From a virus (taxonomy: Duplodnaviria > Caudoviricetes), in IMG/VR virus record IMGVR_UViG_3300031702_000006, positions 1 through 57,627 of that record: a DNA stretch of 57,627 nt, one strand, 5' to 3'. Shown one piece after another: positions 6,463 to 54,783 of the stretch (positions are counted from its first letter, which is position 1; each line of letters begins with the position of its first letter). The translations under genes and the position numbers were made by a program. The notes beneath the pieces were generated by a model. The model saw only the letters and a program-made list of their open reading frames with translations. It was not told the DNA's origin and searched no databases.

Positions 6463-9400
6463 TTAGTTTCTTGTTTTTTTAGATCTTGATTTTGATCTTG
6501 TTCTGTTTCTAGATTTAACCGTAGATTTTACTGACTTTTTAAATTTCTCTTTTTTAATATTCAATTCCCAAGCTGACCATCCTAAGGCCAAAGCTATTCT
6601 TTTATAATATTCAGTTTCTTCATTGCTAGCGTCGACTATATTGGTTATTTTCTTTACAGCTCTATCTAGTGGTACGTTTGTCAAGGCAGATATAACATTT
6701 GCATTAGCTAGATAAGCAGGGTTATCGATGGCCCAACCTTTAGCTCTCATTTCTTGTTTGTTCCAGGAATATGATCTACCAGCAGACTGTAATTTACCTA
6801 TTTTAGATGATATAGGTGGAGATATTTGTAACACTCCTTTAACTACAGCGTCTTGATATTTAGGTGATTTTTTGTCGGCTTCTTTAGCTAATCTTATAGC
6901 TGTATTTTTAACTACAGAAACTATAGCACCTCCAAGTCCAATACCTCGCAATATACTGTCAGACATACCATTTACTATGTTAAAGTATTTTTCGTCTTTC
7001 TTTTTGTCTTCTTCGTCATCATCAAAAGCAAGAGCAAATAATGCTTGCTGTAAAGCAGAGAATAAAAGGTTTTGTGCTACCCCATAGTATATGATCTTAG
7101 ATATGTTTGTTTTAGCATCTCCTCGACCATTCTTAAGGTCGCTAGCAGCTTTTTTAATTAGTCGTGCATATTGTGCTGGCGTATTAGCAAAAGCTAGCAC
7201 TACTCGCCCTAATGGACCAGCTTGTTGTTGGCTAATTTTATCAGGTCTGCTTGACTGTTGAGACTCTTCTGCAATTTCTCTAAAATCTCTAAACGCTTGA
7301 TCTTCAGCTTCAGTCTTTGTTAAACCTTCTTTCTGTAAAGCTTTAATTCTATTTCTATAAAACGAAGCTCCACCCGATGCAATAGCAAAACTATCTGCTA
7401 GTTGTGTTGGCAAGAAACCAGCTTTAAGTATTCCAGCAATTACATTTCTAGCACTATTTCCAGGACCCTTAGCCATATCAGCAATATCAGCTTCATTTAC
7501 ATTTAATTTTAAGCCGCTACGTCTATCTAATAAAAACGGTGAATTAAATAACTTTTTAAAATCACTCCAATATTGAGGTTGATTAGCAAATGCAACTCCA
7601 GCTTTTAATACGTTATTATCACTAAAGTTTATAAAGTTAACAGCTGATATAGTCTGCAATACAGCTGATCTAGTATTAAAAAACATAATAGCACCAACTG
7701 AATTTGTTAACCAGTCTGTAAACCTAGCAGTTAGATTATCAGAACCTGAATTAGTATTTCTACCAGTACTCATTCTTTGAAGCATATTCTCCATAGATTC
7801 TCTATAAGGCTTACCGTAAGCTGCTTCAAGTTTATTGAGATTTGTTTCAGAAAATATTTGATCTACATTTTGCTGCCACACTTCTAGATATTTATCTCTT
7901 TTAACTGTATTTAAAGCTTTTATAAAGTCTGTATCAATAGTTCCAGCAACCCAACCGCCATCAGGAGCAGCATACGCATCTCCTTTACCCATAGCTATTA
8001 ATTGATCTGCAAAAACAGTTAAATCAGCATCATTATTCACATAGTCAACTAATTCTTGTTGATCTTTTTGAGACAATCCAGGCACTGTCATACCTTGTTT
8101 ATTCCAAATAGCAACTCTTACAGCTTGCTCTTTAGTGAAGTCACTATCTTTTATTTTTTTACGTAAGTTTTTAGGTACAATTTTTAAAGCTTTTTTAAGG
8201 CCTTTAAAGTCTTCCATCAATGTAACTCTATCGTTGGCTAAGTTTTCCATTGCTCTTGCAAATGGATTAAGCAAATGAGCTTTATACCAAGCCATTTGAG
8301 CATCTCCAACGTCACCTTTTCCTAAAGTAGAGTATAATAAACCTACAAAGTCTTCAGCAGACGGTGGAATAAAGAAGTTAAATCTACCTTTATTAGCTCC
8401 AGCAACCTCAGCTTTAACTCTAGCATAAGTTTTATCTGATGCAATACCGGTTTTGTTCTCTATAATATCATTAAAATCTTTATCAAGATCTAATGATTTG
8501 CTAAATTTAAGTTCAGATTCTTGGCTATCGTTGTCTATTTCAGACATTTCGCTTAAAACGTTGTTGTTTATGAAATCACCTTTTAATTTAAATTCAGAAG
8601 GTAACATATTATTGTTAGACTTAGAAGCCTTTAATACAGAGTTATTTAAAGCTAAATAATTCTCTCCATACACAACACCTTTATCTTTACCTCCAATCGA
8701 TTCTAAGGTAAACATATTCTTGTATCCTTTAGTTAAAGCATTGAAGTATCTAGTTAAAGGACTCATTCCTAATTTAAACCAAGAAGGCATAGAAGCTTGA
8801 TGAACAATGTTTATTCTTTTGTCCATATCTCTAGGAATCATAGCAACCTGTTGACTTTCTTTCAACACCTCTAAGTCAACACCACCTTCATAGAAGTGCT
8901 TAACCATCTCCTTTAAAGTATAGAGTGATGGTAACATATGCTCAAAAACAGTTGCTGAATCGCTTTTGCCATTATAAAAATACTTAACATAAGCAACGCG
9001 TTTACCTAAAGCACTCATGTTAGATTTTAAAGCCATAAGAGCCATACCAAACTGCAGTTTGTCACCTTTACTTGATATAAAACTAAGATAATCAACCATA
9101 GCATCAAAACCTTCTCCTGCTTCTTTTTTTCTATCACCATACTCAGCTTCTACAGTTTCTCTTTTGAGATTATTTGATTGAGAAAAAGTTTTAATTTTAG
9201 CTTTAAGTTCAGCTTGATTTTTAAATTGTTTTACCCCGTTAATTAAAACGTTAACAGGAACAACTCCAGTTCCGGTTTTTCTATACTTTATTATAATATC
9301 TTTATTTTTTAAAGCTCTGTTTGTAGCTTTAAACCAATCTAAAGATCCAGCATAACCTTGATATCTACCGTCACCTATTTTACCCGCACTAGTGTGATAA

Positions 9401-12400
9401 TCTTTGTGGAATTTTAAAATACTTATAATTCCATCTATATCTCCTAGTTTTTTTATTTGATATAACTGATATTCATGTTGTGTTTTTCTAAATTTATTTA
9501 AAAATTTAGGATCATCAAAAGCACTTCCTGGGTTTATATCAATACCAAGTAAAGCTTTTAATGTTATAGCGCTTAAAGCTTGTTCTATCTGTTCGTTAGT
9601 CACTTCACCAAAATCACTCTCAGTTACAAGTTGTTTTTCTAGATCAACAATAAACTTTTTAGCAGGAGAAGTTAATTCTTTAGCATATTTACCTATAGTT
9701 TCGTCAGACACGCCAGTATCTTCAAGCACATCACTAAGTATTAAGCGCATACTCTTAACGCTGCGGTCGGAAGATACAAATCTCTGTATTATCTCACCTT
9801 GCTCTTGTTTAACTAAGTTAAGTTGTTTTTTAGTTAAATTAGATTTACTAAATTTTAAAGTAGGCTGTTCTTTTGCGGTTTGTTCTGGTTTGTACATTTC
9901 AAAACCAATCTCATCTACAACTCCATCTGATCCGTAATCAAACGTTTCCGCAGTCCAGCCTAATTCTTTAGATAGTTTATCTAATAGAACGTCATAAAGC
10001 TTAACTCTACTAGTTTCACTAGTTAAAGCATTAAAACGAACAGTAGCTATGTTTGGATTTGATTTTATTTCATCAATCACACCATTGTAAATAATACTCA
10101 CAGCTTTAAACTGATCTCCTTTACCTGTTAATTCTTGACTTCCATCTTGATCAAATTCTAATGAATAATCAGTAGGATCAGCATCTTGATCAGCTCCTAA
10201 GTCTCTAGCGTTTAATTGTACATTATATGTCTTATCGCCAATAGTAAAACTGGTATTACGATTCTCAGCTTCATCTATAGACCAATCTAAATCTTGTTTA
10301 GTACTTAGACTAAACTTTAAGGTAGGCGCTCTATCTATTTCTGATAATACTTTAGCTCTTTTAGCTGGTTCTATTTTACCTTCAGTAACTTCAGGAGCAG
10401 CATCTTTAACTAGAGTCTCAACTATTACAGATACTAAACCAGCTTTTCTTTTTTGAGTAAAAAACTTTTTAATTTGTTCTAATGTAGGAGTAGGTAGTTT
10501 TTCGTATACAAAAGCTCCAGACGTTAAGCTTTGATTTTTAGGCAATTTTCCTTGCTCTACAGCCTTTAATATTTCAGCTTTTTTAGTTAATCTTGGAAGT
10601 TGTTTAAAGAATATCTTATCTTCAACTTCTCGTTCTAATTTAACTAAATCTCTTTGAGAAAAATCTTTTAAAATATATTGAGAAGGATCTTTAGGGTTTA
10701 AATACTTATTTATAAATACATCGTCAATAGCTGTTTCTTTTCCTACAATTTTATAAATTTCTTTTTTTAGTCCACTTTCTCTTGCTTTTTTATTTACAAA
10801 AGCAACGAGCTTTTTATCAGGTAGATCTTTTTCTAATATTTCACTTGAAACTTTCTTAGCTAAGTCATATATTTTATCTCCTTGATTTATACCTAATTTT
10901 CCTCTAAGTTTAGACGTAGTTGATTTAATTTTAGTTTCGTCTATAGAAACTTCATCAGCAGCAATACCTTTAGCTTCAGTTACATCATCTGTAAATTCTT
11001 CACCTAGTATTCTTTTAGACGCTTCTATAGCTCTAGCTGGTAAAAACTTATTTATATAAGCAGCCAATGGAACACCAGACTCAGGTTTATATTCTTTAAT
11101 TAAATCTAATATACCACGTTTACCTGTTTCTACTTCGTCAGTAAGTAGCTGTCTGTCAAACCCTGGAGCTTGAGATCTTTTTTCTACTATTTTATTTGTT
11201 ATAGGTTTAAACTGCTCTATAATGTCAAAAGCAGCAGCTTCACCTTGTGTATCATATAGCTCTTGAACTTTAGTCGATGCTTCTTCAGATCTAGAATCTT
11301 TTATAATCTGTTCGTCTGTTTGAATTTTATCAGCAACTAATTTACCTTTAATTCCTTCAGCTGCTTTCACTTGAGCTTTAGTTAATCCTGTAGAGTCTAA
11401 GCTTTTATTATAATCTTTTATAAAATTATAAACATCTTTACCATTGTTAAACTTAACTTTAACTCCTAAAGCTTGAAGCGTTTTACGTATAACGTCACCA
11501 ATTTTAGTAAATACACCTTCATTAAACTTAATGTCTTCTGTTCTAATAGCATCAGAAAACAAAGTTAACACCTCTTCAGCTTGAACAGCTGATGGATCTG
11601 ATTTATACTGTTCTAGTCTTTTAGCAAAATTACTGTCTTTTACCTTGTTAGCATCTATGCTATTTATATATTCTTTTAAAGAATTACCTAAAGCTAATTG
11701 CGTTTCAGGACTATTACTAACGGTCTTAAACAGAAGTGCATGTAAAAACTCGTGAGTAGGCGCAGCTACAGCCATTTCTAAGTTAGCTATTTCTCTATTT
11801 ATGACTATTGTTTGTTTTCCTGTTTTTGAGTTTTGAATTATAAAACCTTGTTGACCAGACGCTTTTTTATCTTGCCCTTGTTCGTTTAAAAATGCTTCAG
11901 TTTCTTCAGTGCTAGCAAACTCCTGAACGTCTAAATCTTTAATGCTTTCAGCAGCTTTTTTAACTTTTTCAATTTCTTGGGTAACTGCTTTAGAACCAAC
12001 GTCTTTTAGACCTTTGTCTATTTCTTTTACTCTATCCGATTGCTCGATAGTTAAATTAGGCTCGCCAATTTGTTTTATTTCGTCTTTCAACTGTTTCTTT
12101 TCTTTCATCAATCGAACAGCTAAAGCTTGATCTTCTGTTGAAAGTCTTAAGGGTTTTATTTGGTTTGAAGCTCCTTGAGTAGTTATAAAATTTTTTTTAA
12201 TTTCATTACCTTGCTCTAATGTTATTTCTCCTTTTTTAACTTTTTTATCAACTTCATAATCAACTATTTCTTGACCATTTTTAAGAGAAGAAATAGCTAT
12301 TTGAGCTTCTTCTGTTGAAGCGTCAGCAGTGAAAGCGTCTGCAGCATTTTCATATTTAGTTTCTCTTATAGCATTTGAAGCAGCAACTTCATCTTGCAAA

Positions 12401-16112: not shown

Positions 16113-16532
16113 TTATTTTAATATTTTTATATAATAATCTTCATCATATTGTTTAATGTCTACCCAGTTGTTTGATTTCAAAAAACTTTTATAATCTTCA
16201 GGATTAGCTGTAGTTATCAAAACCCCTATTTTTAATTTTTTACAATAAAAATCTACAGCCTCGTATAGAAAACTTAAACCACCTTTAGCATGAGTTTTAT
16301 CTTTATTAGCTAAAGGAAAAAGTGTAAATCCAATATGATCCGCTACAAATAAAGAAACACAAAAAACATCTACTCCATTCTCTTTTAGCACAAAAATATC
16401 ATATGGCATGACCACCCTTGGCCACGTTCCAAACTCTTGAGCTTTAGCCCATTTTTGCATTGTTTCAAAAAAATCAGTAGCATTGTCTAATCTTGCTTCC
16501 CATTTTTTTTCTTTATTTGTTTTTAATATCAT
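16113..16532 (-). CDS. hypothetical protein, possibly GNAT-fold assembly factor
   Basis: size and position between nozzle and ejection genes as for T7 gp13 / P22 gp14; weak sequence support. Confidence 0.45.
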   Translation of the reverse strand: MILKTNKEKKWEARLDNATDFFETMQKWAKAQEFGTWPRVVMPYDIFVLKENGVDVFCVSLFVADHIGFTLFPLANKDKTHAKGGLSFLYEAVDFYCKKLKIGVLITTANPEDYKSFLKSNNWVDIKQYDEDYYIKILK

Positions 16533-16547
16533 TTAATTTAATTTAAT

Positions 16548-18017
16548 TTAATATGACGACTCTACGTATTCAGATGATGCAGCGAATAATTCTTTCATGC
16601 CACCTACATCTGTAACAGAATCGGTTGACATTGTAACTGTTGCAAAATAACCTTTTATACCGGTCATATTTGCTCCAAATAATACTTCTCCAGCAGCTGC
16701 AATACTATTATTTGTTAAATTAGTCATATATTTATTCTCTTTTCGGTTAAATCCAGCATGATTTATTGGAGGAATTAATATTACTCCAGGACCAGATTCA
16801 TTGCCATAATCATCATAAGAACCTTGATTATAACTATATACAACAGGTGCTAAAGTGTTTCCGCTAGAATCAATAGATCCAACTATATCTTGATTACCTT
16901 CTGTATAAGCTAAGACATCTATAGGAGTTCCTTGACTAGCTACTCCTGTTGTATCAGAAACAAAATTATCAACTTGCCAACCATTTCCACCTTCGTAATT
17001 TAAAGTTTTAAAAACCTTAGACATACTTACCTTAGGATTAAATATAAATTTTATTTTAGAAGGACTAGAAACTCCATAAAAAACACCTCTAGTATTAGGA
17101 GCGGTACTGTATTGTTTATATAATATACCGTTATTCATAGTGTAAAATGAATTTCTAACGCTAACTCCACCAGAAGGTTTATATGTAAAAAAGCTAGGAA
17201 AACCGTTTACACTATCATCGAAAGCAACTGTAGAGTACAAACCGCTACTAGGCTGTAATGATAACACGTATTGTTTATTGTGAATATCCCACATACCTAA
17301 AGCTTTACCTGTAGAACTAACGGTTGTATCTAAAGCGCTTAGTTGATCTCTAAAGAAATCACTCATACCGTAATTAGAAATTTCAGTTATACCATCATTA
17401 GAAAGCCTTAAAACAACATTTCTATCTTTGTCTGTAAAGTATTTTCTAGTACCGTATATAGCAAAACTTTCTGGATTTCTACTTATACCGTAATTACCAC
17501 TATAAGGAGTTATAGCTCCTATGACTAAACTAGAAGAAGTGATAGAACCTCCACCTTCAGCTGAATATATAGCGTCTTTATCTATTAAAGCTCTACTTAC
17601 TTTGGATTCTTGAAATATAGTTAAATTAGTATTTTCAGCATGTAATTTCTGTATAGAACCTTTTGCTGGATTTAAGCTTTTAGTAATATCATCTCCAATA
17701 GAAAAAACATTAGTATTATTTACGCCTGTCCGCGAATTAAAAATACCAGAATATATAAGTGAACTTGTTCTGCTAATTGCATTAGGTTCGTCTTCTACTA
17801 AATAAGCTTTAGCGCCTAAACTTACAGATGTATTATTATAACCACCTCTAATTCTAGATTCTTCTACAGCCCAATTTAAAGGATTAACTTCGTTTTCTGC
17901 TTGAGGGTGAGTATTATCACCTCTAGAGCCGTTCCAGTAAGGTTCGCCATTGGCGCCTGTTGTGCTTGTCTTTCTTAGTATGAAGCTGTTAAAGTATTTT
18001 ACTTCTATTACACCCAT
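16548..18017 (-). CDS. tail stabilisation / nozzle protein, C-terminal-type subunit
   Basis: YGISRNPESFA, YFTDK, GITEISNYGM, KVFKTLNYEG motifs of crAss-like stabilisation proteins. Confidence 0.75.
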   Translation of the reverse strand: MGVIEVKYFNSFILRKTSTTGANGEPYWNGSRGDNTHPQAENEVNPLNWAVEESRIRGGYNNTSVSLGAKAYLVEDEPNAISRTSSLIYSGIFNSRTGVNNTNVFSIGDDITKSLNPAKGSIQKLHAENTNLTIFQESKVSRALIDKDAIYSAEGGGSITSSSLVIGAITPYSGNYGISRNPESFAIYGTRKYFTDKDRNVVLRLSNDGITEISNYGMSDFFRDQLSALDTTVSSTGKALGMWDIHNKQYVLSLQPSSGLYSTVAFDDSVNGFPSFFTYKPSGGVSVRNSFYTMNNGILYKQYSTAPNTRGVFYGVSSPSKIKFIFNPKVSMSKVFKTLNYEGGNGWQVDNFVSDTTGVASQGTPIDVLAYTEGNQDIVGSIDSSGNTLAPVVYSYNQGSYDDYGNESGPGVILIPPINHAGFNRKENKYMTNLTNNSIAAAGEVLFGANMTGIKGYFATVTMSTDSVTDVGGMKELFAASSEYVESSY

Positions 18018-18021
18018 AGTA

Positions 18022-18050
18022 TATTATTACTTGTTAATTTATTTAATTCC
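18022..18050 (-). promoter_or_regulatory. putative late promoter
   Basis: GGAAT-N15-GTAATAATA in a short intergenic gap. Confidence 0.55.
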
Positions 18051-18051
18051 A

Positions 18052-21000
18052 CTACCTTACTCTTTGCGTCACTATTGGTGTAGCTGTTTTAGGTACTTTT
18101 TTCATTAATACATCAAATTGAGCTATCCATTTTCTAGATTCATTTGATCCCGGTGTGTTTAAATCAACAATAGTATTGTCAAAAGACACTGAAGAGTTAC
18201 CAGAACCCCAAATAGAGTTAATTCCCTCGCCTTGACTAGAATAAATATAAGAACCAGCTCCCTCTCCTACGTAAAGAGTCTCTAACGAAGCTTCATTGTA
18301 AAATTGAGTGACATATTTAAACGACCATTCTCTAGCATAAACAGGTTTGTTAGGTTCAGGTTCAGGATTTGTAACGCTAACCTTAGCACTAACTCTATAT
18401 GCAAAACTACCTTTTCCATTTGCTTGTGGGAAAGGAGGATAATAAAAATCACCGAAAGACAACCTAACACTCATTGCTTGAGCTCCAGATGTCCCATTAG
18501 GGGGATTACGAAAAGCCCAAACGTCTGTATTTGGATTTTCGTAAGGTTTTTTTATGCTTGACAGCCAAGGACCTTGTGTCCTTGTATTTTGAGCGTAAGA
18601 TCCTCTAGGATATCCAACTACTAGCCTGTAGTCTCCAAAACTAGATGAGTTACCATAAGATTGATCTTCACCAAATACAAATGTTGTAGTGTTTATTGCA
18701 GAATTAATTCCACCACTTACTATTGGGTGATCAGGGTTTTGGCTATTAGTTCTTTGATTAAGTACAGGGGTTTTACATTCAACAATATCTTCATTAGATA
18801 AAACTCCATAACGATCAAAATCATCAGCCGTTACAGCTCCATCTCTAATACCATTACTAGGAAACTTTTCATTCCAAGCCACAGATCCACCAAATTTTAT
18901 TTCAGCATTTTCTACATCTAAAGCAGTTTTCCAATCGTCAACGCTCGCTCCTTCTTCTCTATACTGAAGATAACAAGGCCATCCTAAACTTATTAATCCT
19001 ATTGCTCTTTGCTGATTTGGATTAGTTCGAGTTGTCATACTACCTATGTATTCTGCTCTAGTGTCTACTGCGGTATTTCTTCTGCTTTCGCTTAACTCAC
19101 CAAACACGCCACTAGAAAATCTAGCAGGATGCAGACAAGATAACTGAATAAAAGCAGTTCCAGCTGTTAAGCCAGTTGAAGCAGGATTACTAGGAAGATT
19201 AAATACTGAAGATGATGAATTTAAGTTAGCTGCAGTCCAAGAATAAAAATTACCTGATACCTCACTCGATGGATCCGTTTGTGTTCTTGATATTTGGTTA
19301 AAATAATCATTACTTATAGATTCAGGTTGCAAGGCTGAATTAGGATATCTATTAATGCTATTTTCAGATCCTCCATTGTTTTGTACAGCTTGTGGTAATA
19401 AGTTTGCACCTGAATTTATAGCATTACTACTATTAGACCAGTACATACCAACACTTCCCATGCCTGTTAAAATCAATTTATCTGACGCTTTACCAAACCC
19501 TACGTTTATTGGTATTTCTCCAAAAATAGCGTTGTACACTACCGTATCAAAAAGTGATGTATTTCCTCCTGAAGCGTCTTTTACAGTTACAGTTGCAGTT
19601 ATTCTTCCAATAGCTGATCCGGAGTTTTGCGTTATCACTCCTCCTTGACTTATTTGAAGTACATCACTAGGGTTTATAGAATAAACTAAATTACTAGTAT
19701 CTTGCGATGCATCAACACATCCATTTACAGCTGTTATAGTATCAACAGCGGTATCTCCAATAGTCACTACTTTAGTAATAACTCCGTCTGGGTCTTGCGC
19801 ATTTTGGATTACTGGAGATTCATTTATTAGTAATTGGTTTCTCACTACAACTTGATTTATTAAACCAGTGTCTTGATTCTTAACTTGAAACGTAAAAATA
19901 TATTCATTTTCTGATTGAGTACTGCTAAATAATTGAATTTTTTTAACTATCAAATTAAATGATTTAGGCTGTATTTGACCAGATGGAATGCACTCCCATT
20001 CTGGAGTCGATCCTTCAACTAAATTTACTGTTGAAGAACCTCTAGTAACGCTAACTAACGTTACTTCTGAATTAGGAATAGCTACGCCTCCAACGATACC
20101 TTCAACTGACGGAGAAAATGGTAGTTTAGTGCATAAGCCGTTAATAGTAGTTCCTTCGCTTTGAATGAAATCAAAATCAACTAATCCGCTTACTTGAGCG
20201 GCGCCTTCAATGGTTTTATTTAAATCTGATATAAGTCCAGTTGTAGAAGTTTCCCAAAATATATCTAATAAAGAGGTTACTGGTGCGGTTTCATAAACAC
20301 CTAAAATTATATTTTGAACTGTTTCTTCGCCTGCCGGAACTAAAGAACCTATTGCAGTTCCAGAGACGCTTAGCCTAGCCAATGATGGGTTTGTTATGGT
20401 TTGATAAATAGTTCCATAACTTTTAGCTCCTTGACCGTTAAGAGTGTTATTAAATAAGTCGTTTTGTAAAGAAATAGTAGATACAACACTATCGTAAGGT
20501 ATATCATCTATAGTAGGATAATAAGGTTTATTGAAAACAGGATTTATATTTGCTTCAGGAGTTACTCTACCGTATAGAACAGTACTACTTCTGTATTGCG
20601 TTTGATCAGGTCCAACTTCAGTTAAATCTCTAGGTATTTTATTTATATTATCAGACAATAACGTTATAAAAGAAGTATTAGCGCCACCAGTTGCTGGTAT
20701 TAATGTGTCTGGATAACCTCCAATTATTCCAGGTAAATAAACATTGTAATACTCTTGTTCTGTTTGCTTGACAACTATTTTGTAAGAATACCATCCTAAA
20801 GGATTATATTTATCGCTTGAAACGTCTCCATTGTAAAGCCCAGGCCATCCAAAAACAGCAAGTTCAGGTGGTATTTCTTTGTTTAATTTTACTTTTAAAG
20901 AGTCACCAGGCCAAGAGTTTATATCGTTAACTCCAACAGGAATTAAAGTAGCTGGATCAGGAGAGTAGTTGTGGTAGTAGGTTGATCCGCCAAATTCAAT

Positions 21001-22578
21001 TTGTTCGTTGTTTATAACAGCTGTACTAACTTTATTAGTAACCTCAGAAAGTATAGTGGTAGATTGCCTTCCGAATCTATCTGATAAAACAAAACCAACT
21101 TGATATGTTCTGTTTTGTTTTAACGTATGATTTGGATACTCCGTAATGCTAGTACTCCATGTAGACGGATTTACAGTAGATCCAGTTTCAGGTCCATTAA
21201 AATTACTTTTATTTGAAACAGCTACATCGTAATCCATTGTGGATGGAGGGGTGTGTTTATCTTGAAAATTACTATAAACAACTCTATTACTTATTATTTC
21301 TTGACCTAAAGCTTTGACTGGAACCTTGTCGTAAACTCTTATTATTTCAGATTCAGGCAAAGTCTTGTACGGTTTTCTAGATTGATAATCGTATTTAACA
21401 GTAGTAGCTTGACTAGCTAAACCGTCTATTGGGGCAAATCCATTTACTCCATTAAAAGGTATAGATTCTAAAACTTTAACAGCCAAAGCATCAGATTCTT
21501 TAAATAAAATATCTATTTCTTGCACGTGAAACAAAGTATTTAATTCTTTTGCTGTACAGATAGTGCCATTTTCTTTAAAGGGTAAAGGTATATTTATTCC
21601 TACATTATTCACTTTATTTTCCATAAACTGAACAATAGTACTTTGATATGCATTATTCTCGTCTATAGAATTTGCAGACAATCCAGTACCTGGATCAGAC
21701 TGAATAAAATAACCATCTTGTTTTGGTATAAAAGCTTCTTGAGTAAAAGGCGCTAATATAGAATATTCACCATCTATAAATTTAAATCTATAACTAAAAG
21801 ACACAAATTTATCTTCTAAGTAATCAGGATCTCCAGGCCAACTAGGGTCGTAGTACATGTTTCTAGTTGTTGTGTTTGGAAGAAATTTAGAAGTAACATC
21901 TTGAGAACTACTTACGAATTTGTTTACGTTAGGATTAACTACTGGAACAGCGGGTGTTGAGTATGGAGTTTCTGCTGCTATGTCTTGATAATATAATTCT
22001 ATTGTTCTAAATGGATTTATTTTAGCAATAGATATTTGATCTTCATTACTGTAAAAAGCACCCCCTATACCTAATTTTATATTTATCTTTCTAGGTTGAT
22101 TTCTGTTGTCTGTAAAAAAGAGTAAATTCTCTAAAAGATTTATACCGTATATTCTGTTTCTTGTAGAAAAATTTAAAAAAGCTCCTTGCGCTAATAAATT
22201 AACATCTTCAGATAATGTATTATACTCAAATATAAAGTTTTTAGAATCTTTAGAGTATTCAACTTCTTTGTTACTTGTTAAAAAAACAAATATACTACTA
22301 TTGTTTTGGTCAGCTAGCATGCCTACGGTGTTTAGCGTTCCAGTTGAAAGTCCAGCCAAAACACTAAAATCAACAGGGACTCCTTGACTACCTCCACCTT
22401 GATTTCTAGTTAGAGCAATCTCGTTGCCTAGTACATTTTCTAAAGCACCAACATCTGATCCTTCTGATTTACTAACTTGTATATTAATTCCTTCACGATA
22501 TTCACCTGGAGGGATAAGTCTATCGTCCAGATCTTGATTCATTTTAGATTTAATAAAAGCATTTTTAACTTCAGCCAT
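18052..22578 (-). CDS. tail stabilisation / nozzle protein, N-terminal-type subunit with long extension
   Basis: KMNQDLDDRLIPPGEYR, LFFTDNRNQPRKIN, FSYRFKF, LKQNRTYQVGFVLSDRFGR motifs. Confidence 0.75.
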   Translation of the reverse strand: MAEVKNAFIKSKMNQDLDDRLIPPGEYREGINIQVSKSEGSDVGALENVLGNEIALTRNQGGGSQGVPVDFSVLAGLSTGTLNTVGMLADQNNSSIFVFLTSNKEVEYSKDSKNFIFEYNTLSEDVNLLAQGAFLNFSTRNRIYGINLLENLLFFTDNRNQPRKINIKLGIGGAFYSNEDQISIAKINPFRTIELYYQDIAAETPYSTPAVPVVNPNVNKFVSSSQDVTSKFLPNTTTRNMYYDPSWPGDPDYLEDKFVSFSYRFKFIDGEYSILAPFTQEAFIPKQDGYFIQSDPGTGLSANSIDENNAYQSTIVQFMENKVNNVGINIPLPFKENGTICTAKELNTLFHVQEIDILFKESDALAVKVLESIPFNGVNGFAPIDGLASQATTVKYDYQSRKPYKTLPESEIIRVYDKVPVKALGQEIISNRVVYSNFQDKHTPPSTMDYDVAVSNKSNFNGPETGSTVNPSTWSTSITEYPNHTLKQNRTYQVGFVLSDRFGRQSTTILSEVTNKVSTAVINNEQIEFGGSTYYHNYSPDPATLIPVGVNDINSWPGDSLKVKLNKEIPPELAVFGWPGLYNGDVSSDKYNPLGWYSYKIVVKQTEQEYYNVYLPGIIGGYPDTLIPATGGANTSFITLLSDNINKIPRDLTEVGPDQTQYRSSTVLYGRVTPEANINPVFNKPYYPTIDDIPYDSVVSTISLQNDLFNNTLNGQGAKSYGTIYQTITNPSLARLSVSGTAIGSLVPAGEETVQNIILGVYETAPVTSLLDIFWETSTTGLISDLNKTIEGAAQVSGLVDFDFIQSEGTTINGLCTKLPFSPSVEGIVGGVAIPNSEVTLVSVTRGSSTVNLVEGSTPEWECIPSGQIQPKSFNLIVKKIQLFSSTQSENEYIFTFQVKNQDTGLINQVVVRNQLLINESPVIQNAQDPDGVITKVVTIGDTAVDTITAVNGCVDASQDTSNLVYSINPSDVLQISQGGVITQNSGSAIGRITATVTVKDASGGNTSLFDTVVYNAIFGEIPINVGFGKASDKLILTGMGSVGMYWSNSSNAINSGANLLPQAVQNNGGSENSINRYPNSALQPESISNDYFNQISRTQTDPSSEVSGNFYSWTAANLNSSSSVFNLPSNPASTGLTAGTAFIQLSCLHPARFSSGVFGELSESRRNTAVDTRAEYIGSMTTRTNPNQQRAIGLISLGWPCYLQYREEGASVDDWKTALDVENAEIKFGGSVAWNEKFPSNGIRDGAVTADDFDRYGVLSNEDIVECKTPVLNQRTNSQNPDHPIVSGGINSAINTTTFVFGEDQSYGNSSSFGDYRLVVGYPRGSYAQNTRTQGPWLSSIKKPYENPNTDVWAFRNPPNGTSGAQAMSVRLSFGDFYYPPFPQANGKGSFAYRVSAKVSVTNPEPEPNKPVYAREWSFKYVTQFYNEASLETLYVGEGAGSYIYSSQGEGINSIWGSGNSSVSFDNTIVDLNTPGSNESRKWIAQFDVLMKKVPKTATPIVTQRVR

Positions 22579-25470: not shown

Positions 25471-26955
25471 TTAAATTCCTTGGAATAAAACAAAGTTATT
25501 AGCAGCTTGCACTACTAAACATCTTTCAGACAAGAAGTTAACTTGCATTGCATCTAGTTGAGATGTGAATGCGCCTCCAGCTGAACCAGTTAACCAAGAC
25601 TTCATACGTCTGTCTTCAGTTTCTGAAGCTCTGTATCGTACGTGTAAAAATGGTCTACGGATATTTGTTCCTAAAATTTGATCGTAAACTGTTGAAGTTC
25701 CAGCAGGAACAAGAACACCTTCGATTGAATTGATACCTACTTGAGCACCACGAGTTGAAGCGTCATTTAAGTATTTCCAGTCAGTTTTATAGAAGTCATA
25801 AGATCCTCTGCGGAAACCACTAAATCCAAGATTTAATGCCATTTCTTCAGAGTTTTCAAATAATCCATAAGCTGTACCACCTTGGAATCCAGAAGAAATA
25901 GCTCCTAACATGTTATCAAAGTCTAAAGACGTTTGACGCTGTAAGAACAACATGTTTTCTTCAATAGCTCCTTGAGTGTCTAAGTTTTTAAGGATTTCAT
26001 CGAAATCATCTAAACCACCAGCCCCTGAAAAAGCAACCTCAACATTACCTCTAGCTTGAATAGCAGCAAATAAACCTTGAGTTCCTTGGAAACCAGCAGT
26101 AGCTGCAGCTGCACCCGCGGTAGCAAGTTCACCTTCAATAACACTCATTTCTAAGTAATCTTCAAAACGCAAGCGAGTTTCAGATTCAGCTTTTAAATAC
26201 CATAAGTATCCAGACGTTCCGTCTTCAGCAGCAACTTCCACCCATCCAATCTGCGCCATGTCCGATCCGTTTACAACGTATTCGTTTCTGATGATAATTG
26301 GGTTATTAGAAAATTGAGTGAATGAAGGAGTAATGCTAATTTGTGGTTGAGCTGCATTTGCTAAAGCATTTGCACCTGCGTTGTTCGCTCCTACGGTATT
26401 AGAACCTTTTACAAATTCAGAACCATATACAAACATTTTAACCGTCGAAACAGCTGCAAAACCTAAAGGAGCAATAGTTAAATTGTTCGCTAAATAAGGA
26501 GCTAACTGTACTACTCCTGTAGCTGTATTACTTGAAGTAACAACACATTTTGCTTCGTTACCTACTTGATCCGTAACAACTACAGTTTGACCTGGAGAAA
26601 CAACATTCTGAATAGCTGTAGCACCGGCTCCACCGATAGGAATTACAACTTGACTAACGGCACCAACCAAAGCATGCGCTAATCCGCTATATGCTATGTG
26701 TAGTCTATTTTGTTCTGACCAAATTACTTGATCTGAAGTCATTGGAAGCTCTGCTCCAACCATACGTAGAAATCCTGAAAGAGTTCTGTTACCGTAACGC
26801 TCTACCTCTTGCTCGTAAACTTCAGGTAGGTACTGTTGAGCAAAACTAGAAAAGTTTGCACCAGCAGCATTGTTAAATTGTAAATAATTAGTTTGTAGCA
26901 ATTGTTGTGATTGCGACGGCACTAATGAGCCAAATTGTGGCTGTAATTGTCCCAT
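25471..26955 (-). CDS. major capsid protein
   Basis: QQYLPEVYE..VERYGNRT, WSEQNRLH and GFSGFRRGSYDF motifs; follows portal and scaffold; downstream hairpin. Confidence 0.88.
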   Translation of the reverse strand: MGQLQPQFGSLVPSQSQQLLQTNYLQFNNAAGANFSSFAQQYLPEVYEQEVERYGNRTLSGFLRMVGAELPMTSDQVIWSEQNRLHIAYSGLAHALVGAVSQVVIPIGGAGATAIQNVVSPGQTVVVTDQVGNEAKCVVTSSNTATGVVQLAPYLANNLTIAPLGFAAVSTVKMFVYGSEFVKGSNTVGANNAGANALANAAQPQISITPSFTQFSNNPIIIRNEYVVNGSDMAQIGWVEVAAEDGTSGYLWYLKAESETRLRFEDYLEMSVIEGELATAGAAAATAGFQGTQGLFAAIQARGNVEVAFSGAGGLDDFDEILKNLDTQGAIEENMLFLQRQTSLDFDNMLGAISSGFQGGTAYGLFENSEEMALNLGFSGFRRGSYDFYKTDWKYLNDASTRGAQVGINSIEGVLVPAGTSTVYDQILGTNIRRPFLHVRYRASETEDRRMKSWLTGSAGGAFTSQLDAMQVNFLSERCLVVQAANNFVLFQGI

Positions 26956-34201: not shown

Positions 34202-34231
34202 TTGATTTGATTTAATTTAGTTTAGTTTAGT

Positions 34232-50606: not shown

Positions 50607-50638
50607 TACAAACTAAATACGATATCATATGGATAATA
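50607..50638 (+). promoter_or_regulatory. early promoter-like repeat 1
   Basis: TACAAACTAAATACGA-N8-GGATAATA. Confidence 0.8.
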
Positions 50639-50683
50639 TATATGTAAGCAAGCAACGAAGCTCTTACGCCTAATATCACTACA

Positions 50684-50860
50684 ATGACTGTACAAAACTT
50701 AGCTAAGCTAGAATTAGCGAAAATGAATGAAAGTTATTATGGTAGCGAAAAGCAGATAGCTAAAGAAATAGTTATAATGAAAGCTAGTAAGATAGAAATG
50801 CTTTACAATGAAACCATAGAAGAATGGCTTTACAAAGTAAGTACGAGTATAGCTGGATAA
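50684..50860 (+). CDS. small early protein (58 aa, MTVQNLAKLE...)
   Basis: hand-translated; lies between repeats 1 and 2. Confidence 0.55.
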   Translation: MTVQNLAKLELAKMNESYYGSEKQIAKEIVIMKASKIEMLYNETIEEWLYKVSTSIAG

Positions 50861-50862
50861 TA
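50831..50862 (+). promoter_or_regulatory. early promoter-like repeat 2
   Basis: TACAAAGTAAGTACGA-N8-GGATAATA. Confidence 0.8.
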
Positions 50863-50915
50863 CTAGTGAGAGTTTTATAGAATTGATTGCCTCTAAAATA
50901 TTAATCAATGAAAAA

Positions 50916-51023
50916 TGAGTGAATGGATTAGTGTAAACCACGATAGCTAGTAAGTTTGAGAAACTTGCATATAAAAAATAGTTCCGTCGATGTGTCCAGA
51001 AAGTTCGATTCTTTCTCACTCAA
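50916..51023 (+). ncRNA. tRNA-like RNA with non-canonical interior
   Basis: 7-bp acceptor TGAGTGA/TCACTCA, T-arm GAAAG-TTCGATT-CTTTC, no normal D or anticodon arm. Confidence 0.6.
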
Positions 51024-51037
51024 CTAAAATTATAAAT

Positions 51038-51172
51038 ATGAATGCAATAGAATTTGTAGGCGAAATGGATCGTCTAGCAGAAGTACACTTCGGCGAATTT
51101 GGTTATGCTACATGTAGCAGTGATGAACAAAAAGTAGTTATTAAACTGTTATTACACAACTTAAAAAAGTAA
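51038..51172 (+). CDS. small early protein
   Basis: MNAIEFVG...HFGEFGYATCS; ATG after the tRNA-like element. Confidence 0.65.
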   Translation: MNAIEFVGEMDRLAEVHFGEFGYATCSSDEQKVVIKLLLHNLKK

Positions 51173-51305
51173 ATATGAATAAAGTAAACAAGTTAATACA
51201 AACCTATTCAAACCCAAATATGAATAGAGAAAAGCTAAGTTATAAAATAAAAGACTATTATAACTTAAATGAAAGCGAAAGATTACATTTTTTATACTGG
51301 ATATA

Positions 51306-51485
51306 ATGATTAAAGAATTTGAATGGAACAAAGATACTTTAGAGTATTTTAGAAAGCATAACAAAATAGATTATGATAAGCAAAGTGAAATGAGAATGTT
51401 TGTAGAAAACAATTGTGTTTTAGAAGACGGTGAAAGCTATGAAGATTTAATAAAAGATTTAGAACTACAAAGTAAATACGAATAA
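51306..51485 (+). CDS. small early protein (59 aa, MIKEFEWNK...)
   Basis: hand-translated; ends inside repeat 3. Confidence 0.6.
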   Translation: MIKEFEWNKDTLEYFRKHNKIDYDKQSEMRMFVENNCVLEDGESYEDLIKDLELQSKYE

Positions 51486-51497
51486 AAAAGGATAATA
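51466..51497 (+). promoter_or_regulatory. early promoter-like repeat 3
   Basis: TACAAAGTAAATACGA-N8-GGATAATA. Confidence 0.8.
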
Positions 51498-51502
51498 CTA
51501 AT

Positions 51503-51631
51503 ATGAATAATATATACGACAAGAAGTTTGAAATCTACTTAGTAAAAAAAGGTTTTAACTTAGATACTATTAGCTTACAAGAATGCTTAACACAAATCAA
51601 AATATGGAAAAGGAATATCGCAAGCGTATAG
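51503..51631 (+). CDS. small early protein (42 aa)
   Basis: ATG 5 nt after repeat 3 (leaderless-like). Confidence 0.45.
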   Translation: MNNIYDKKFEIYLVKKGFNLDTISLQECLTQIKIWKRNIASV

Positions 51632-51713
51632 GTTATTTATCTACAAGAAGTAGATTTTGCTTAACCAGTAGAAAACAATTATTACAGTTACAAAAAGAAT
51701 TAAAAACATTATT

Positions 51714-51944
51714 ATGCAAATAGAAATAGACACTGTAGACTTACAGAACACACTCGAGCAATTATATGATCGCAAAGTAAAATTAGTTGCGTATGCGAGC
51801 GCTGATGGATTAGATACATTAGTACTTGAAGGAAATGAGGAAGATCTTTTTAATTTCTACTTAGAATCTTTCAATCCATTTAATGAATGGACTAATACAG
51901 ATGTTGTAAGATCAGAGTTTTTTGCTCACATACTTACAAAGTAA
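51714..51944 (+). CDS. small acidic early protein
   Basis: ORF track; stop lies inside repeat 4. Confidence 0.65.
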   Translation: MQIEIDTVDLQNTLEQLYDRKVKLVAYASADGLDTLVLEGNEEDLFNFYLESFNPFNEWTNTDVVRSEFFAHILTK

Positions 51945-51966
51945 ATACGATAATAAACGGATAATA
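51935..51966 (+). promoter_or_regulatory. early promoter-like repeat 4
   Basis: TACAAAGTAAATACGA-N8-GGATAATA. Confidence 0.8.
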
Positions 51967-51981
51967 TAATAAACAAACAAT

Positions 51982-52233
51982 ATGAATCAAATGCAAACAC
52001 CAAACGAGTACTTACATCAAATGCAAGAAGCATTAAGCGATTATGAGGTTAACGAAGATAATCATTACGACTATTTACATGAAGTCATAGACACTATGGT
52101 GATATATACATCGACTTGTAAACAAATTATAAACGATTTAGATTACGATATATTTCAAGAACACGAATTTGGTCAAGCTAAAAGTTACGAACAAGCAGCA
52201 TTTTGCGCACTATACGATTTATACACAGCATAA
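51982..52233 (+). CDS. acidic early protein, Ocr-like DNA mimic candidate
   Basis: YDYLHEVIDTMVIY resembles the Ocr-family D.IHE..D..V..Y pattern; very few basic residues. Confidence 0.5.
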   Translation: MNQMQTPNEYLHQMQEALSDYEVNEDNHYDYLHEVIDTMVIYTSTCKQIINDLDYDIFQEHEFGQAKSYEQAAFCALYDLYTA

Positions 52234-52234
52234 T

Positions 52235-52396
52235 ATGACAGACAAACAAATAGAAATACTAGACAGAACAGACAAGATCAAGCTACTAAACATAGATGGC
52301 AAAGTAAATTACATTTATAATGGCTTTAGAGAGCATTTTCCTAAAGAAACACTAGATGAAGCAAGAGAATATTTTAAATCAAATCTAACCAAGTAA
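52235..52396 (+). CDS. small early protein
   Basis: MTDKQIEILD...; ATG just after the previous stop. Confidence 0.6.
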   Translation: MTDKQIEILDRTDKIKLLNIDGKVNYIYNGFREHFPKETLDEAREYFKSNLTK

Positions 52397-52550
52397 TATG
52401 AAAAACGAAGACATAATAGCGCAATACAATATGCTACTAGATGCAGAGCTAGAAATTTACTTACAACAACAACAATACGAAAACTTATATGAGTAGAAAA
52501 TTTAAACTAAGACACAGTAACTTTTTTAACAAACCAAAAACCAGAACAAT

Positions 52551-52775
52551 ATGAATATGACAGAACTTAAACAATACATGATAGATAACAAGCGAATCAA
52601 AGTAGCTCAATGGAATAAAGATCGTCAAGGCAATCACTGTCAAGGCTTTACACAAAAAGAGTTTGAACAGTCTATGGAAGTTGATAGAATTAAATCTAGA
52701 ACGCGTAGAACCCACTCTAAAGGCAATCACTGGAATTTTAATGATACTAAAAACAGAGAGCTTTTTACAAAGTAA
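52551..52775 (+). CDS. small basic early protein
   Basis: ORF track; stop lies inside repeat 5. Confidence 0.65.
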   Translation: MNMTELKQYMIDNKRIKVAQWNKDRQGNHCQGFTQKEFEQSMEVDRIKSRTRRTHSKGNHWNFNDTKNRELFTK

Positions 52776-52797
52776 ATACGAGTACAAGTGGATAATA
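52766..52797 (+). promoter_or_regulatory. early promoter-like repeat 5
   Basis: TACAAAGTAAATACGA-N8-GGATAATA. Confidence 0.8.
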
Positions 52798-52810
52798 TAA
52801 TAAACAATAT

Positions 52811-53155
52811 ATGAGAATCAAAAGAAATTTAATGAATCAAATGATAGCTGAAGACGTAATGTCAGGCGTGTGGCCAGCTTATCACAACAGTAAAAACGGT
52901 AATAAGTGTTGGAGCTTATACAGAGGCTCTAAAGGGCTTTATTCAGAAGCCAATACTAATAGTCCTAAGAACACTTTAGTCTTACACAACGGCTCTCAAA
53001 GCTCTTACGTTTCACTATCGTGTGACAGCTTAGAGATGGCTGAGTATATAACTAATCACGAAATGAACTTCACTAAAACTTTAAAGCGTGACAAAGCAAG
53101 GTCAGAGTATCTAGCTAGCGAAGAAGGTAAATGGGGTAGACAAGACAGCTTTTAA
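52811..53155 (+). CDS. early hypothetical protein
   Basis: ORF track; directly after repeat 5. Confidence 0.7.
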   Translation: MRIKRNLMNQMIAEDVMSGVWPAYHNSKNGNKCWSLYRGSKGLYSEANTNSPKNTLVLHNGSQSSYVSLSCDSLEMAEYITNHEMNFTKTLKRDKARSEYLASEEGKWGRQDSF

Positions 53156-53160
53156 CGTCA

Positions 53161-53278
53161 GCGCAAGGTAGTTTATAAAAGGTAAAACGTTATAGCTTAT
53201 GATGCACGATATGTGAATTACGTAATAGCATAGAGAGGCTAGGTTATAATCTAGCGGGTTCAAATCCCGCTCTTGCGC
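53161..53278 (+). ncRNA. tRNA-like RNA with expanded anticodon arm
   Basis: acceptor GCGCAAGG/TCTTGCGC, D-arm GTTT..GG..AAAC, stem TTATAGC/GTTATAA enclosing about 46 nt, T-arm GCGGG-TTCAAAT-CCCGC. Confidence 0.75.
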
Positions 53279-53283
53279 CTAAA

Positions 53284-53354
53284 GCGAGATTGGCAGAATG
53301 GTTATGCATTGCCCTTCCAAGGCAACCAAGCAGGTTCGATTCCTGTATCTCGCT
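53284..53354 (+). tRNA. tRNA-Gly(TCC)
   Basis: full cloverleaf: GCGAGAT/ATCTCGC, TTGCC-CTTCCAA-GGCAA, T-loop TTCGATT, U discriminator; CCA not encoded. Confidence 0.93.
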
Positions 53355-53359
53355 CAACT

Positions 53360-53391
53360 TACAAACTAAATACGAACACAATAGGATAATA
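53360..53391 (+). promoter_or_regulatory. early promoter-like repeat 6
   Basis: TACAAACTAAATACGA-N8-GGATAATA. Confidence 0.8.
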
Positions 53392-53408
53392 TAATAAAAC
53401 AAAACAAT

Positions 53409-53750
53409 ATGACAACATTAGAAAAATTTCAAGAAGTAGCAAACATCGAATTTATTCAAACGCCTTCGCTTGCAGATATAGAGATCGGCGAATTAAATAC
53501 AGCTGACGGCTACGAATTATTTTATGTAACGCAAGACATTCAAAATTTAAACTACGAAAACGAATTGTTCTACTACAAGCCAGATTTTGATACTATCATG
53601 AGCGAAATATTAAATGCTAGAATATCATCAAATGTAGTCACAGTTTTTGTATACGATGTTGATGACCACTTTGACGAGTTCTACATGCTTGACTATATTG
53701 AAAGTGAAATAGATGAAGAAGAATTTGAAAAGTTCACAGAAAATGCATAA
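53409..53750 (+). CDS. highly acidic early protein
   Basis: ORF track; D/E-rich; directly after repeat 6. Confidence 0.7.
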   Translation: MTTLEKFQEVANIEFIQTPSLADIEIGELNTADGYELFYVTQDIQNLNYENELFYYKPDFDTIMSEILNARISSNVVTVFVYDVDDHFDEFYMLDYIESEIDEEEFEKFTENA

Positions 53751-53849
53751 GGCTTGGCGATTATACTTGCTCGATAACAAGAGCTTGACAGAGATAAGCA
53801 AAATGCTTAACATCACTAAAAACAAACTTATTAACGAATACGGATTAAA

Positions 53850-54047
53850 ATGAACAAATTAAAGAAAGTAAACAAAACAAGAATCAAACTTAATGGTAAA
53901 TCTTACAAAGGCTATTTAGTCGGCGATCTACCTCCTACATTTGCTTATATTACAGCAGAAGACATAAACGAGTTTGGCGAAGTAGAAAACACTCCAGGTA
54001 TTAAATCTTGGTTTAATCACAAGGGTTTAACATACATAGGACAATGA
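53850..54047 (+). CDS. small early protein
   Basis: ORF track. Confidence 0.65.
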   Translation: MNKLKKVNKTRIKLNGKSYKGYLVGDLPPTFAYITAEDINEFGEVENTPGIKSWFNHKGLTYIGQ

Positions 54048-54292
54048 GAAAGTTAATATTCCAACTGTACAACGATAATATAATAACAATTGAAGTAGCA
54101 AATCTACTCATAGACCAACACGAAAAATGAAACAATTCGCGCAAGAGAGTTATGATAAATTAAAATCTGTGAAAAGACATAGAATTAATTTCTTTTTAGA
54201 AGAAAACATAAAAGAAATCTTTGGCAAATGTACTAAAGAATTAAAACTACTTGTCTTACAAGACATGATAAGCGACACAAAAAAAACATAAT

Positions 54293-54511
54293 ATGACACA
54301 AAAAGAAAGAAAAGACAGAATATACAACAAAGCGTTTGCAATGATAGCAACGTTAAAGATAGAGATTAAATCTTTAGATGAGACAATCCCTTACTTTGCT
54401 TATACTCAAGATATGATTGATGGGCAAATAAACTTTAAAGAGCGTGAATTAGAACTATGGAATCATATAGCTTTTTTAAACGAACAAGACGAAGTCTGTC
54501 AGATTTACTAA
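54293..54511 (+). CDS. small early protein
   Basis: ORF track. Confidence 0.65.
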   Translation: MTQKERKDRIYNKAFAMIATLKIEIKSLDETIPYFAYTQDMIDGQINFKERELELWNHIAFLNEQDEVCQIY

Positions 54512-54518
54512 TTTAAAT

Positions 54519-54591
54519 TGGTCTATGGTGTAACTGGCAACACGTCTGGTTTTGGTCCAGAAGAGTCTAGGTTCGAGCCCTAGTAGACCAA
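54519..54591 (+). tRNA. tRNA-Gln(TTG)
   Basis: cloverleaf: TGGTCTA/TAGACCA, TCTGG-TTTTGGT-CCAGA, CTAGG-TTCGAGC-CCTAG; CCA not encoded. Confidence 0.93.
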
Positions 54592-54611
54592 CTAACATTA
54601 AACTATATACT

Positions 54612-54761
54612 ATGGCAGGAAATAAATACAATCCACCTAAAAGGCCTTATAAGCCTTATACATACACGCTAAACTATATTAACGAACAAGGTTCTAATGA
54701 AGCTGTTCAAGGTACAGCTAAGCAGATAATGCTACATATTCTTAATCAACATACAAAGTAA
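54612..54761 (+). CDS. small early protein (MAGNKYNPPK...)
   Basis: ATG after the tRNA; stop lies inside repeat 7. Confidence 0.55.
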   Translation: MAGNKYNPPKRPYKPYTYTLNYINEQGSNEAVQGTAKQIMLHILNQHTK

Positions 54762-54783
54762 ATACGAACAATAAAGGATAATA
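54752..54783 (+). promoter_or_regulatory. early promoter-like repeat 7
   Basis: TACAAAGTAAATACGA-N8-GGATAATA. Confidence 0.8.

Follow-up and report, generated by a model that had tools for sequence, protein, structure and literature searches.

A very diverged sigma2-like module within a giant mosaic late-module protein of a Flavobacteriia-type phage, and its possible docking on RNA polymerase

The linear IMG/VR virus record IMGVR_UViG_3300031702_000006, 57,627 bases long and 89% complete (the window, analysed here over its full length), encodes in its late gene module a giant open reading frame (ORF) of 2428 amino acids (aa), termed P0001. An earlier sequence-only reading had proposed that a block of this protein holds a sigma-factor domain, which is injected together with the phage DNA and redirects the host RNA polymerase (RNAP) to a set of early promoter repeats. 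Here, we report that aa 817-926 of P0001 very probably adopt a true, though far diverged, fold of the sigma-70 region-2 (sigma2) type, as judged from structure prediction and language-model features, and that this module is embedded in a mosaic protein resembling the so-called polyvalent proteins. That the module is delivered from the virion and docks on RNAP is, in our estimate, an evenly balanced proposition; it is not claimed here as the reader of the early repeats.

A giant mosaic protein in the late module

P0001 (features in Table 1) follows in a late gene series whose order on the minus strand is terminase, portal, capsid-type protein, two ORFs of the crAss-type muzzle family, three small ORFs and P0001 itself; the small ORFs that come after it include an M15 peptidase. 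This is the location where crAss-type phages encode their ejected cargo and virion RNA polymerase and, by its place in the gene order, P0001 would be packaged and ejected as well. The same position is occupied by giant genes in two relatives, Flavobacterium phage elemoA (3694 aa; NC_055852.1 50563-61647; annotated as 'structural protein') and the uncultured record MW202828 (3859 aa; MW202828.1 741-12320), whose products are barely similar to P0001: position is conserved, content is not.

Searches of whole P0001 against Pfam and PHROGs returned DUF2680 as the sole match, under its cut-off, and phmmer against PDB sequences gave no match at E≤1. Homologues of the sigma2-like module are numerous: 1015 at E≤0.001 among 4932 candidates (90% clusters), all of them giant proteins, as are all 296 representatives at the 50% level. 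The giant homologues measure 1.3-3.0 thousand aa and have in common a glycine-rich hydrophobic N-terminal part, an HExxH motif, the module and the conserved C-terminal domain. The cassettes between the linkers differ from homologue to homologue and are bounded by strings of the LKFSKS type, found at cassette borders in most of 120 listed homologues, with the linker peptide being kept between unrelated cassettes. At the N-terminal border of the module, homologues carry IKESRS or x[F/M/L]SK; of 142 distinct contexts, 40 show the strict form. In P0001, the block that had been delimited by eye is indeed framed by IKDSRS and TLKFSLS and amounts to ~327 aa. Many unrelated, exchangeable domains, by which polyvalent proteins are recognised, were found among the P0001 homologues, where further cassettes are an AAA_33/zeta-toxin-like kinase and DUF6934. 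The homologues P0053, P0002 and P0003 provide these two and a stretch with VFDFDDTLA, all three being cassettes not found in the window; the string resembles the phosphatase motif of HAD enzymes.

The region around the HExxH motif of P0001 has no Pfam match. Each of nine further giant ORFs that were inspected has an HExxH at 110-300 aa ahead of its sigma-like pattern, and an aromatic-x-P ... aromatic-I/L pattern follows at the same distance after it (judged by eye, with no statistic). Linkers and HExxH within one protein fit, by analogy, polyvalent proteins that are processed by a zincin, and P0001 may be cleaved likewise. As to the C-terminal domain, its ESM Atlas neighbours are unnamed viral clusters, and among named clusters the nearest are those with LPD39 (in 28% of members) and LPD38 (in 88%). 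Both are polyvalent-protein-associated domains; they are leads only, the C-terminal domain having no Pfam match.

Fold and sequence of the sigma2-like module

The AlphaFold2 (AF2) model of the block (mean predicted local distance difference test score (pLDDT) 83.8; predicted template modelling score (pTM) 0.62) consists of two domains joined by a disordered acidic linker, which overlaps the last few residues of the range aligned to sigma2. When this model was compared by VIA-align with 48,161 PDB representatives and the best 50 rows were considered, each of the first 20 was a sigma factor or an initiation complex containing one, and no fewer than 30 of the 50 bore such titles (Z 8.4 to 5.0). 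All sigma rows span model residues ~8-117, corresponding to the range given for the module in Table 1. The list is headed by SigB (8x6g_H; Z 8.4, root-mean-square deviation (rmsd) 2.9, 86 aligned residues) and includes sigma32 (Z 7.9), ShbA (7.4), sigma28 (7.3), pro-sigmaK (7.2), RpoS, AlgU, SigE and the T4 gp45-dependent late-transcription complex 7d7d_F (6.8 each), and sigma70 (1sig; 6.7). The uniformity of this list carries weight because the second domain of the block, submitted to the same comparison, produced a mixed list in which Z does not exceed 5.5.

Of the structural checks that had been suggested, AlphaFold modelling followed by Foldseek gave a divided outcome: the weak rows obtained with the module model are mostly sigma factors, but no match reaches E≤0.001. 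A language-model search pointed in the same direction as the fold, in that 27 of the 30 best named ESM Atlas clusters for aa 810-925 carry Sigma70_r2 (PF04542), with scores of 0.96-0.97, 157-167 shared features and a recognition value of 3203. On these predictions, we are confident, short of certain, that the module is a real sigma2-type fold. It resembles the sigma2 domains (helical, regions 1.2-2.4) of sigma-70 factors, above all those of group 3 and the ECF type (PF04542; SigB, sigma28/FliA, sigma32, SigE, AlgU), over ~86-97 residues at Z 6.8-8.4, and shares with them a G-x-x-G, aromatic-x-P, aromatic-I/L pattern in the register of regions 2.2-2.3. Unlike these factors, however, it has no hidden Markov model (HMM) match, is part of a much larger protein and comes without a recognisable sigma3 or sigma4.

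The peptide that had been singled out as similar to region 2 of sigma-70 runs on the minus strand from AAFDIIEQ at aa 839 (11235) to ARAIEA at aa 910 (11020). Its resemblance was upheld by fold and language-model features, not by HMM statistics. While the module fails to match PF04542, the free-standing sigma factor of the same phage, P0261, passes (26 bits in the genome search; hmmscan E 1.5e-5, 25.1 bits, cut-off 24). An hhalign comparison of the module with the phage's own sigma family was insignificant (E 0.01-0.02, probability 2-4%), the sigma side being low in diversity (the P0261 homologues returned are all at least 77% identical); its register laid the module over regions 2.1-2.2 of the phage's sigma factor, as expected. 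In the module alignment (A1, 36 sequences), the invariant or near-invariant columns G67, G70, I75, Y78 and P85 fall within the region-2.2-like stretch. By inspection, most variants retain one aromatic residue in the helix that resembles region 2.3, and the putative DNA-reading helix varies freely among them. The tryptophan pair found in region 2.3 of primary sigma factors is not kept.

The remainder of the block

Folded alone, the second domain was again modelled with confidence (Table 1), and Foldseek returned no match for it at E≤0.001. Neither VIA-align nor Foldseek listed a sigma3 or sigma4 row for this domain, an absence that in itself does not exclude such a family. Matches to most of the representative giant proteins end in the acidic linker and are confined to query residues 1-135. 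The N-terminal part thus occurs without the C-terminal part in most of them, and the sigma2-like and second domains appear separable. Since no sigma3 or sigma4 fold was found in the other ~200 aa, the block is, on the predicted models, a sigma2-only module plus a domain without clear structural relative, and not a complete sigma factor.

Modelled contact with RNA polymerase

Sigma domain 2 docks sigma factors on the beta' clamp helices of core RNAP. Following the proposal to co-fold the domain with RpoC of a Flavobacteriia species, we paired the module (A1 residues 5-120) with residues 180-400 of the Flavobacterium johnsoniae beta' subunit (RPOC_FLAJ1). The outcome was weak support, with a score of 0.58 (runs 0.36, 0.59 and 0.58), compared with 0.00 for the best of three controls; the runs share at least 56% of their contacts, and the pLDDT of the partner is at least 69. 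Of 80 solved complexes, 58 reach the mark for such co-folds, as do 2 of 110 mismatched pairs; passes at 0.60 or under make up just 7 of the former and both of the latter. As complexes between sigma and beta' have already been solved, the pass may reflect likeness only.

Early repeats and a free sigma gene

The early promoter-like repeats do exist, as the sequence-only reading had it: seven copies of a 26-nucleotide (nt) motif, none being expected by chance (0.00), start at 50607, 50831, 51466, 51935, 52766, 53360 and 54752, all on the plus strand and just upstream of small ORFs. The host-type pattern TTTG-N17-23-TAnnTTTG is unenriched in the window (6 matches vs 3.97 expected), with no match on the plus strand of the early region. 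In IMG/VR, at least 119 viral-contig stretches contain the motif in a shortened version. From these, 30 records were taken for a co-variation analysis; the longest and multi-copy stretches were chosen, and the set is not a random sample. With up to two mismatches, the motif is present in 30 of these 30 records in 1-12 copies per record, which share one strand with few if any exceptions (a reversed-pattern control gave 0-1 matches per record). The conserved C-terminal domain of P0001 was recovered from 28 records, including 19 of 19 near-complete ones (36-62% identity). A module of the window's type was matched in 15 (11 of the 19 near-complete; 26-78% identity), and a second module type in one. 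When nine further giant ORFs were searched with the A1 HMM, weak hits were obtained in G020, G012, G021 and G016 and none in G008, G002, G007, G024 and G025. The co-variation of module and motif that had been anticipated was accordingly not seen, the motif being found in every record and the module ranging from 78% identity to undetectable.

Besides, the window carries P0261, a gene cut by the window end, whose homologues are 250 aa long. This free sigma gene is found in 27 of the 30 records and 19 of the 19 near-complete ones at 53-72% identity, and in the relatives it always follows the array of repeats at a distance of ~3 kb, downstream and oriented alike. That the motif stays fixed while the module drifts, with a conserved two-domain sigma factor at hand, argues against the module as the specificity determinant; the free sigma gene is an equally good or better candidate for the reader of the motif. 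Given that this gene lies downstream of the array, and that the early region has no host-type promoter pattern, something must fire the array first, and this first trigger may simply be the host holoenzyme. A preprint on phage phi14:2 reports transcription from the T7 A1 promoter by Cellulophaga RNAP, as well as sigma70-like -35 and -10 blocks in the middle promoters of this phage (bioRxiv 10.1101/2020.03.07.982082). In the light of these statements, the premise that the host cannot read promoters such as the repeats is weak. A search of five complete relatives for T7-type RNAP (PF00940) found none, but the control genomes were equally silent, so that this negative carries no weight.

The early region is partly present in 12 of 15 listed sequencing runs, nine of them recorded as RNA and all available as assembled contigs. 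The contigs of four runs yielded fragments 90-100% alike to the early region, without starts, ends or strand information. Contigs from three RNA-library runs join 53392 to 53755 with 10 other letters in between, omitting the ORF at 53409-53750, and the joint begins right after the repeat copy at 53360-53391. As the contigs skip this ORF, relatives appear to lack that small gene, and the repeat bounds a gene cassette. Ahead of the array, where the late and early blocks diverge, positions 50200-50600 form an AT-rich non-coding stretch of ~400 nt. Short ACTAT/TATAC repeats are numerous in it, and an inverted GTGTCA/TGACAC pair immediately precedes the first copy of the motif; this stretch may be an origin or control region.

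Table 1. Location of P0001, its parts and other features in the window
Feature	Position	Strand	Basis or remark
P0001, giant mosaic ('polyvalent') late-module ORF, 2428 aa	6463..13749	-	stop-free open frame
HEFLH (HExxH) motif, aa 666-670, candidate zincin metallopeptidase site	11740..11754	-	motif match
N-terminal boundary linker IKDSRS, aa 816	11287..11304	-	sequence string
Sigma2-like domain (predicted), aa 817-926 (model residues 8-117)	10972..11301	-	AF2 model, VIA-align, ESM Atlas
Acidic linker, predicted disordered, aa 918-943 (model residues 109-134)	10921..10998	-	pLDDT <50
Second block domain (predicted), alpha/beta, aa 944-1142	10324..10920	-	model pLDDT 83.0, pTM 0.81
C-terminal boundary linker TLKFSLS, aa 1143	10303..10323	-	sequence string
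Linker TLKFSKS, aa 1297	9841..9861	-	sequence string
Linker ELKFSKS, aa 1746, directly ahead of conserved C-terminal domain	8494..8514	-	sequence string
Conserved C-terminal domain, 676 aa, common to whole family	6466..8493	-	related-record search
Seven promoter-like repeats TACAAASTAARTACGA-N8-GGATAATA	50607..54783	+	motif search, 7 matches vs 0.00 expected
Free-standing sigma-70-family gene P0261	56928..57626	+	cut by window end; PF04542
Terminase	30652-32871	-	late module
Portal	28237-30648	-	late module
Capsid-type virion protein	25471-26955	-	late module
crAss-type muzzle-family ORF, 1508 aa	18052-22578	-	matches phrog_14478 profile positions 1-178
crAss-type muzzle-family ORF, 489 aa	16548-18017	-	phrog_14478 positions 919-1216; hits PF25729, crAss_MUZ_C

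Host and further features of the genome

By terminase, the nearest deposited phages infect mostly Flavobacterium (68 of 87 records), followed by Cellulophaga (15), Tenacibaculum (2) and Maribacter (1), which makes the earlier guess of a Flavobacteriia host a reasonable one; the uncultured record MW202828 is 62% identical in the terminase comparison. Several observations were made in passing. The muzzle gene looks split or rearranged, with the phrog_14478 profile spread over two consecutive ORFs (16548-22578, minus strand). A GroEL-type chaperonin gene (PF00118, E 1.8e-58) lies within the late block at 38993-40549 on the minus strand, and elemoA and MW202828 both carry GroEL and GroES. The ORF at 41013-47435 (2140 aa) was weighed as a polymerase and rejected, its Peptidase_S74 identifying it as a tail fibre. 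Three gene boundaries of the late block bear 32-nt repeats rich in (ATTTA/TTTAA)n (16526-16557, 34210-34241 and 40550-40581; family D12), which are candidate late promoters or terminators.

Discussion

We propose that P0001 carries an RNAP-docking module that is delivered within a mosaic, polyvalent virion protein, a proposal that in our view might go either way. It is broad and overlaps two narrower readings; our estimates are therefore not meant to total 1. Starting from the observed fold, conservation, mosaic context and gene order, the following course of events may be envisaged. P0001 would be packaged and ejected along with the DNA, whereupon its own metallopeptidase may cut it at the linkers. 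Docked at the entry site on a small number of host core RNAP molecules, the sigma2-like module would then help the first round of phage transcription, acting either as a minimal sigma factor in the manner of T4 gp55 or as a tether.

The T4 late sigma factor gp55 is a parallel to such a minimal factor: it is essentially a sigma2-like domain and programmes the host core RNAP by a -10-like element alone. In structure, it aligns with the module at Z 6.8 (PDB 7d7d chain F; rmsd 3.4, 93 aligned residues). Gp55 is synthesised late, as a free protein, and cooperates with gp33 and the sliding clamp, unlike the module, which is part of a probable virion protein. Delivery from the virion in turn has its precedent in RNA polymerases, namely gp66 of the crAss-like phage phi14:2 (bioRxiv 10.1101/2020.03.07.982082), the N4 vRNAP (PMC13434306) and, as an RNAP fused to a tape measure, P23-45 (bioRxiv 10.1101/2022.12.01.518664), according to the respective reports. 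Like these, P0001 is a giant protein at the end of a virion module that is proposed to start transcription on entry, and its gene order of muzzle, small cargo-like ORFs and giant gene is that of crAss-type phages. Unlike phi14:2 gp66 or the N4 vRNAP, however, P0001 lacks a polymerase motif, as the sequence-only reading had correctly noted: it contains neither DFD nor DFDxD, only D.D.D strings at aa 1187 and 1754. What such a protein delivers would thus be, at most, a part that docks on the polymerase.

As for the polyvalent proteins of phages and conjugative elements, Iyer et al. 2017 (PMC5512222) describe a predicted co-delivery with DNA, processing by peptidases and a jump-start of transcription. 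P0001 is like the proteins of that account in being giant and multidomain, in its candidate HExxH zincin-type site and in its exchangeable cassettes. It is unlike that account in the module itself: the word 'sigma' has no occurrence in the main text of PMC5512222, whose domain lists may nonetheless name such a module. The module matches no Pfam family, and hence none of the LPD families in the Pfam copy searched. Free phage sigma factors form a further point of comparison, since phiEco32 gp36, SU10 gp32 and P0261 use the host core RNAP and supply the promoter specificity from the phage side. Unlike the module, each of them is a gene product of its own, early or middle, that has both sigma2 and sigma4. 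Our literature searches brought up no sigma domain described within a virion or polyvalent protein. What comes nearest is a particle preparation of SU10 in which the phage's sigma factor was detected by a single peptide, among many non-structural proteins, as listed in PMC4281155.

Several points weigh against the docking proposal. On the level of sequence, the block matches no Pfam family even at E≤10, Sigma70_r2 (PF04542) is matched by 0 of the 36 aligned module members, and a profile search of PDB sequences with the block returned no sigma factor, its only match being a SET-domain protein on the C-terminal part (E 0.027). On the level of structure, Z values of 6-8 can be reached by helical domains through a common arrangement, which calls for caution below Z 8, and the co-fold, made with the beta' subunit of a stand-in host, gave no interface and supports docking weakly. 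With regard to the virion, no isolate among 50,697 phage records matches P0001 (tblastn of the whole protein and of the module gave no match even at E≤1), neither a cultured member nor a virion proteome of the family was found, and the giant proteins of elemoA and MW202828 lack the module in a search with the A1 HMM. The linkers could equally be recombination joints rather than cleavage sites. Finally, the module is hypervariable in close relatives, which is odd for a part that should fit the highly conserved surface of beta', unless only few contacts matter.

Some of these points would be accounted for if the module were a helical domain with a role in structure or packaging and no action on RNAP, resembling sigma2 by convergence or as a vestige. 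The missing HMM significance, Z values of at most 8.4, the hypervariability of the module and its absence from the giant proteins of related isolates would all suit this explanation, which we nevertheless consider unlikely. Sigma factors fill the first 20 VIA-align rows, unlike the list of the second domain; the independent language-model search arrives at the same Pfam family; the sequence register matches regions 2.1-2.3; and the co-fold with beta' stands, if weakly, above its three controls.

The original proposal, in turn, holds that the released block binds the host core RNAP and itself reads the seven repeats before any phage gene is expressed. Its sigma2 fold, its giant late-module protein and its repeats all stand; a complete sigma factor and the co-variation do not. 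In its favour, a sigma2 fold coincides with real repeats, seven in number, all on the plus strand and upstream of small ORFs, that do not fit the TTTG-N17-23-TAnnTTTG pattern. Moreover, the free sigma gene lies downstream of the array, so the repeats could fire before that factor exists; T4 gp55 provides a sigma2-only precedent (7d7d_F, Z 6.8); and a few injected molecules would presumably be enough for one genome. On the other hand, co-variation is missing, in that all 30 records retain the motif and only 15 have a match to the module, and the two blocks of the motif, ~21 bp apart, lead one to expect sigma2 together with sigma4, of which the latter was not found in the block. The free sigma factor, conserved in all 19 near-complete records at 53-72% identity, fits the conserved motif better, the host RNAP of one Flavobacteriia species reads sigma70-type promoters as far as the phi14:2 preprint reports, and packaging is presumed from gene order. 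We therefore judge it improbable that the block acts as an injected early sigma factor, and just as improbable the general form of this idea, in which marine Flavobacteriia podophages would deliver a sigma2-only specificity subunit, cut from cargo, to fire a promoter array of non-host type. If true, it would constitute a third strategy beside the injected polymerases of N4 and crAss-type phages and early promoters of the host type.

Ejected proteins of N4 and crAss-type cargo are present in few copies per virion. A sigma mimic that occupies the beta' clamp helices, blocks the host sigma factor and shuts down host transcription is the least probable of the explanations considered, for even though the sigma2 fold is best conserved in its region-2.2-like stretch, the putative DNA-reading helix varies freely on inspection, and polyvalent proteins are described in PMC5512222 and PMC7824862 as carrying host-takeover enzymes, few ejected copies could hardly titrate thousands of RNAP molecules, and the phage, encoding a sigma factor, needs the host RNAP (a search of five complete relatives, run without a positive control, found no T7-type RNAP to replace it).

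We thus return to the docking module in its broad form. Phage transcription is known to start either from early promoters read by the host holoenzyme or by means of a whole injected RNA polymerase. A particle-borne sigma domain that docks on the polymerase would, if true, be an intermediate and so far undescribed solution, and the repertoire of polyvalent virion proteins would gain a transcription-factor domain. In seawater the family is abundant, with more than 1000 protein clusters and the motif in at least 119 viral-contig stretches. The proposed role of the module, if true, would therefore matter for the takeover of Flavobacteriia by a common group of marine phages.

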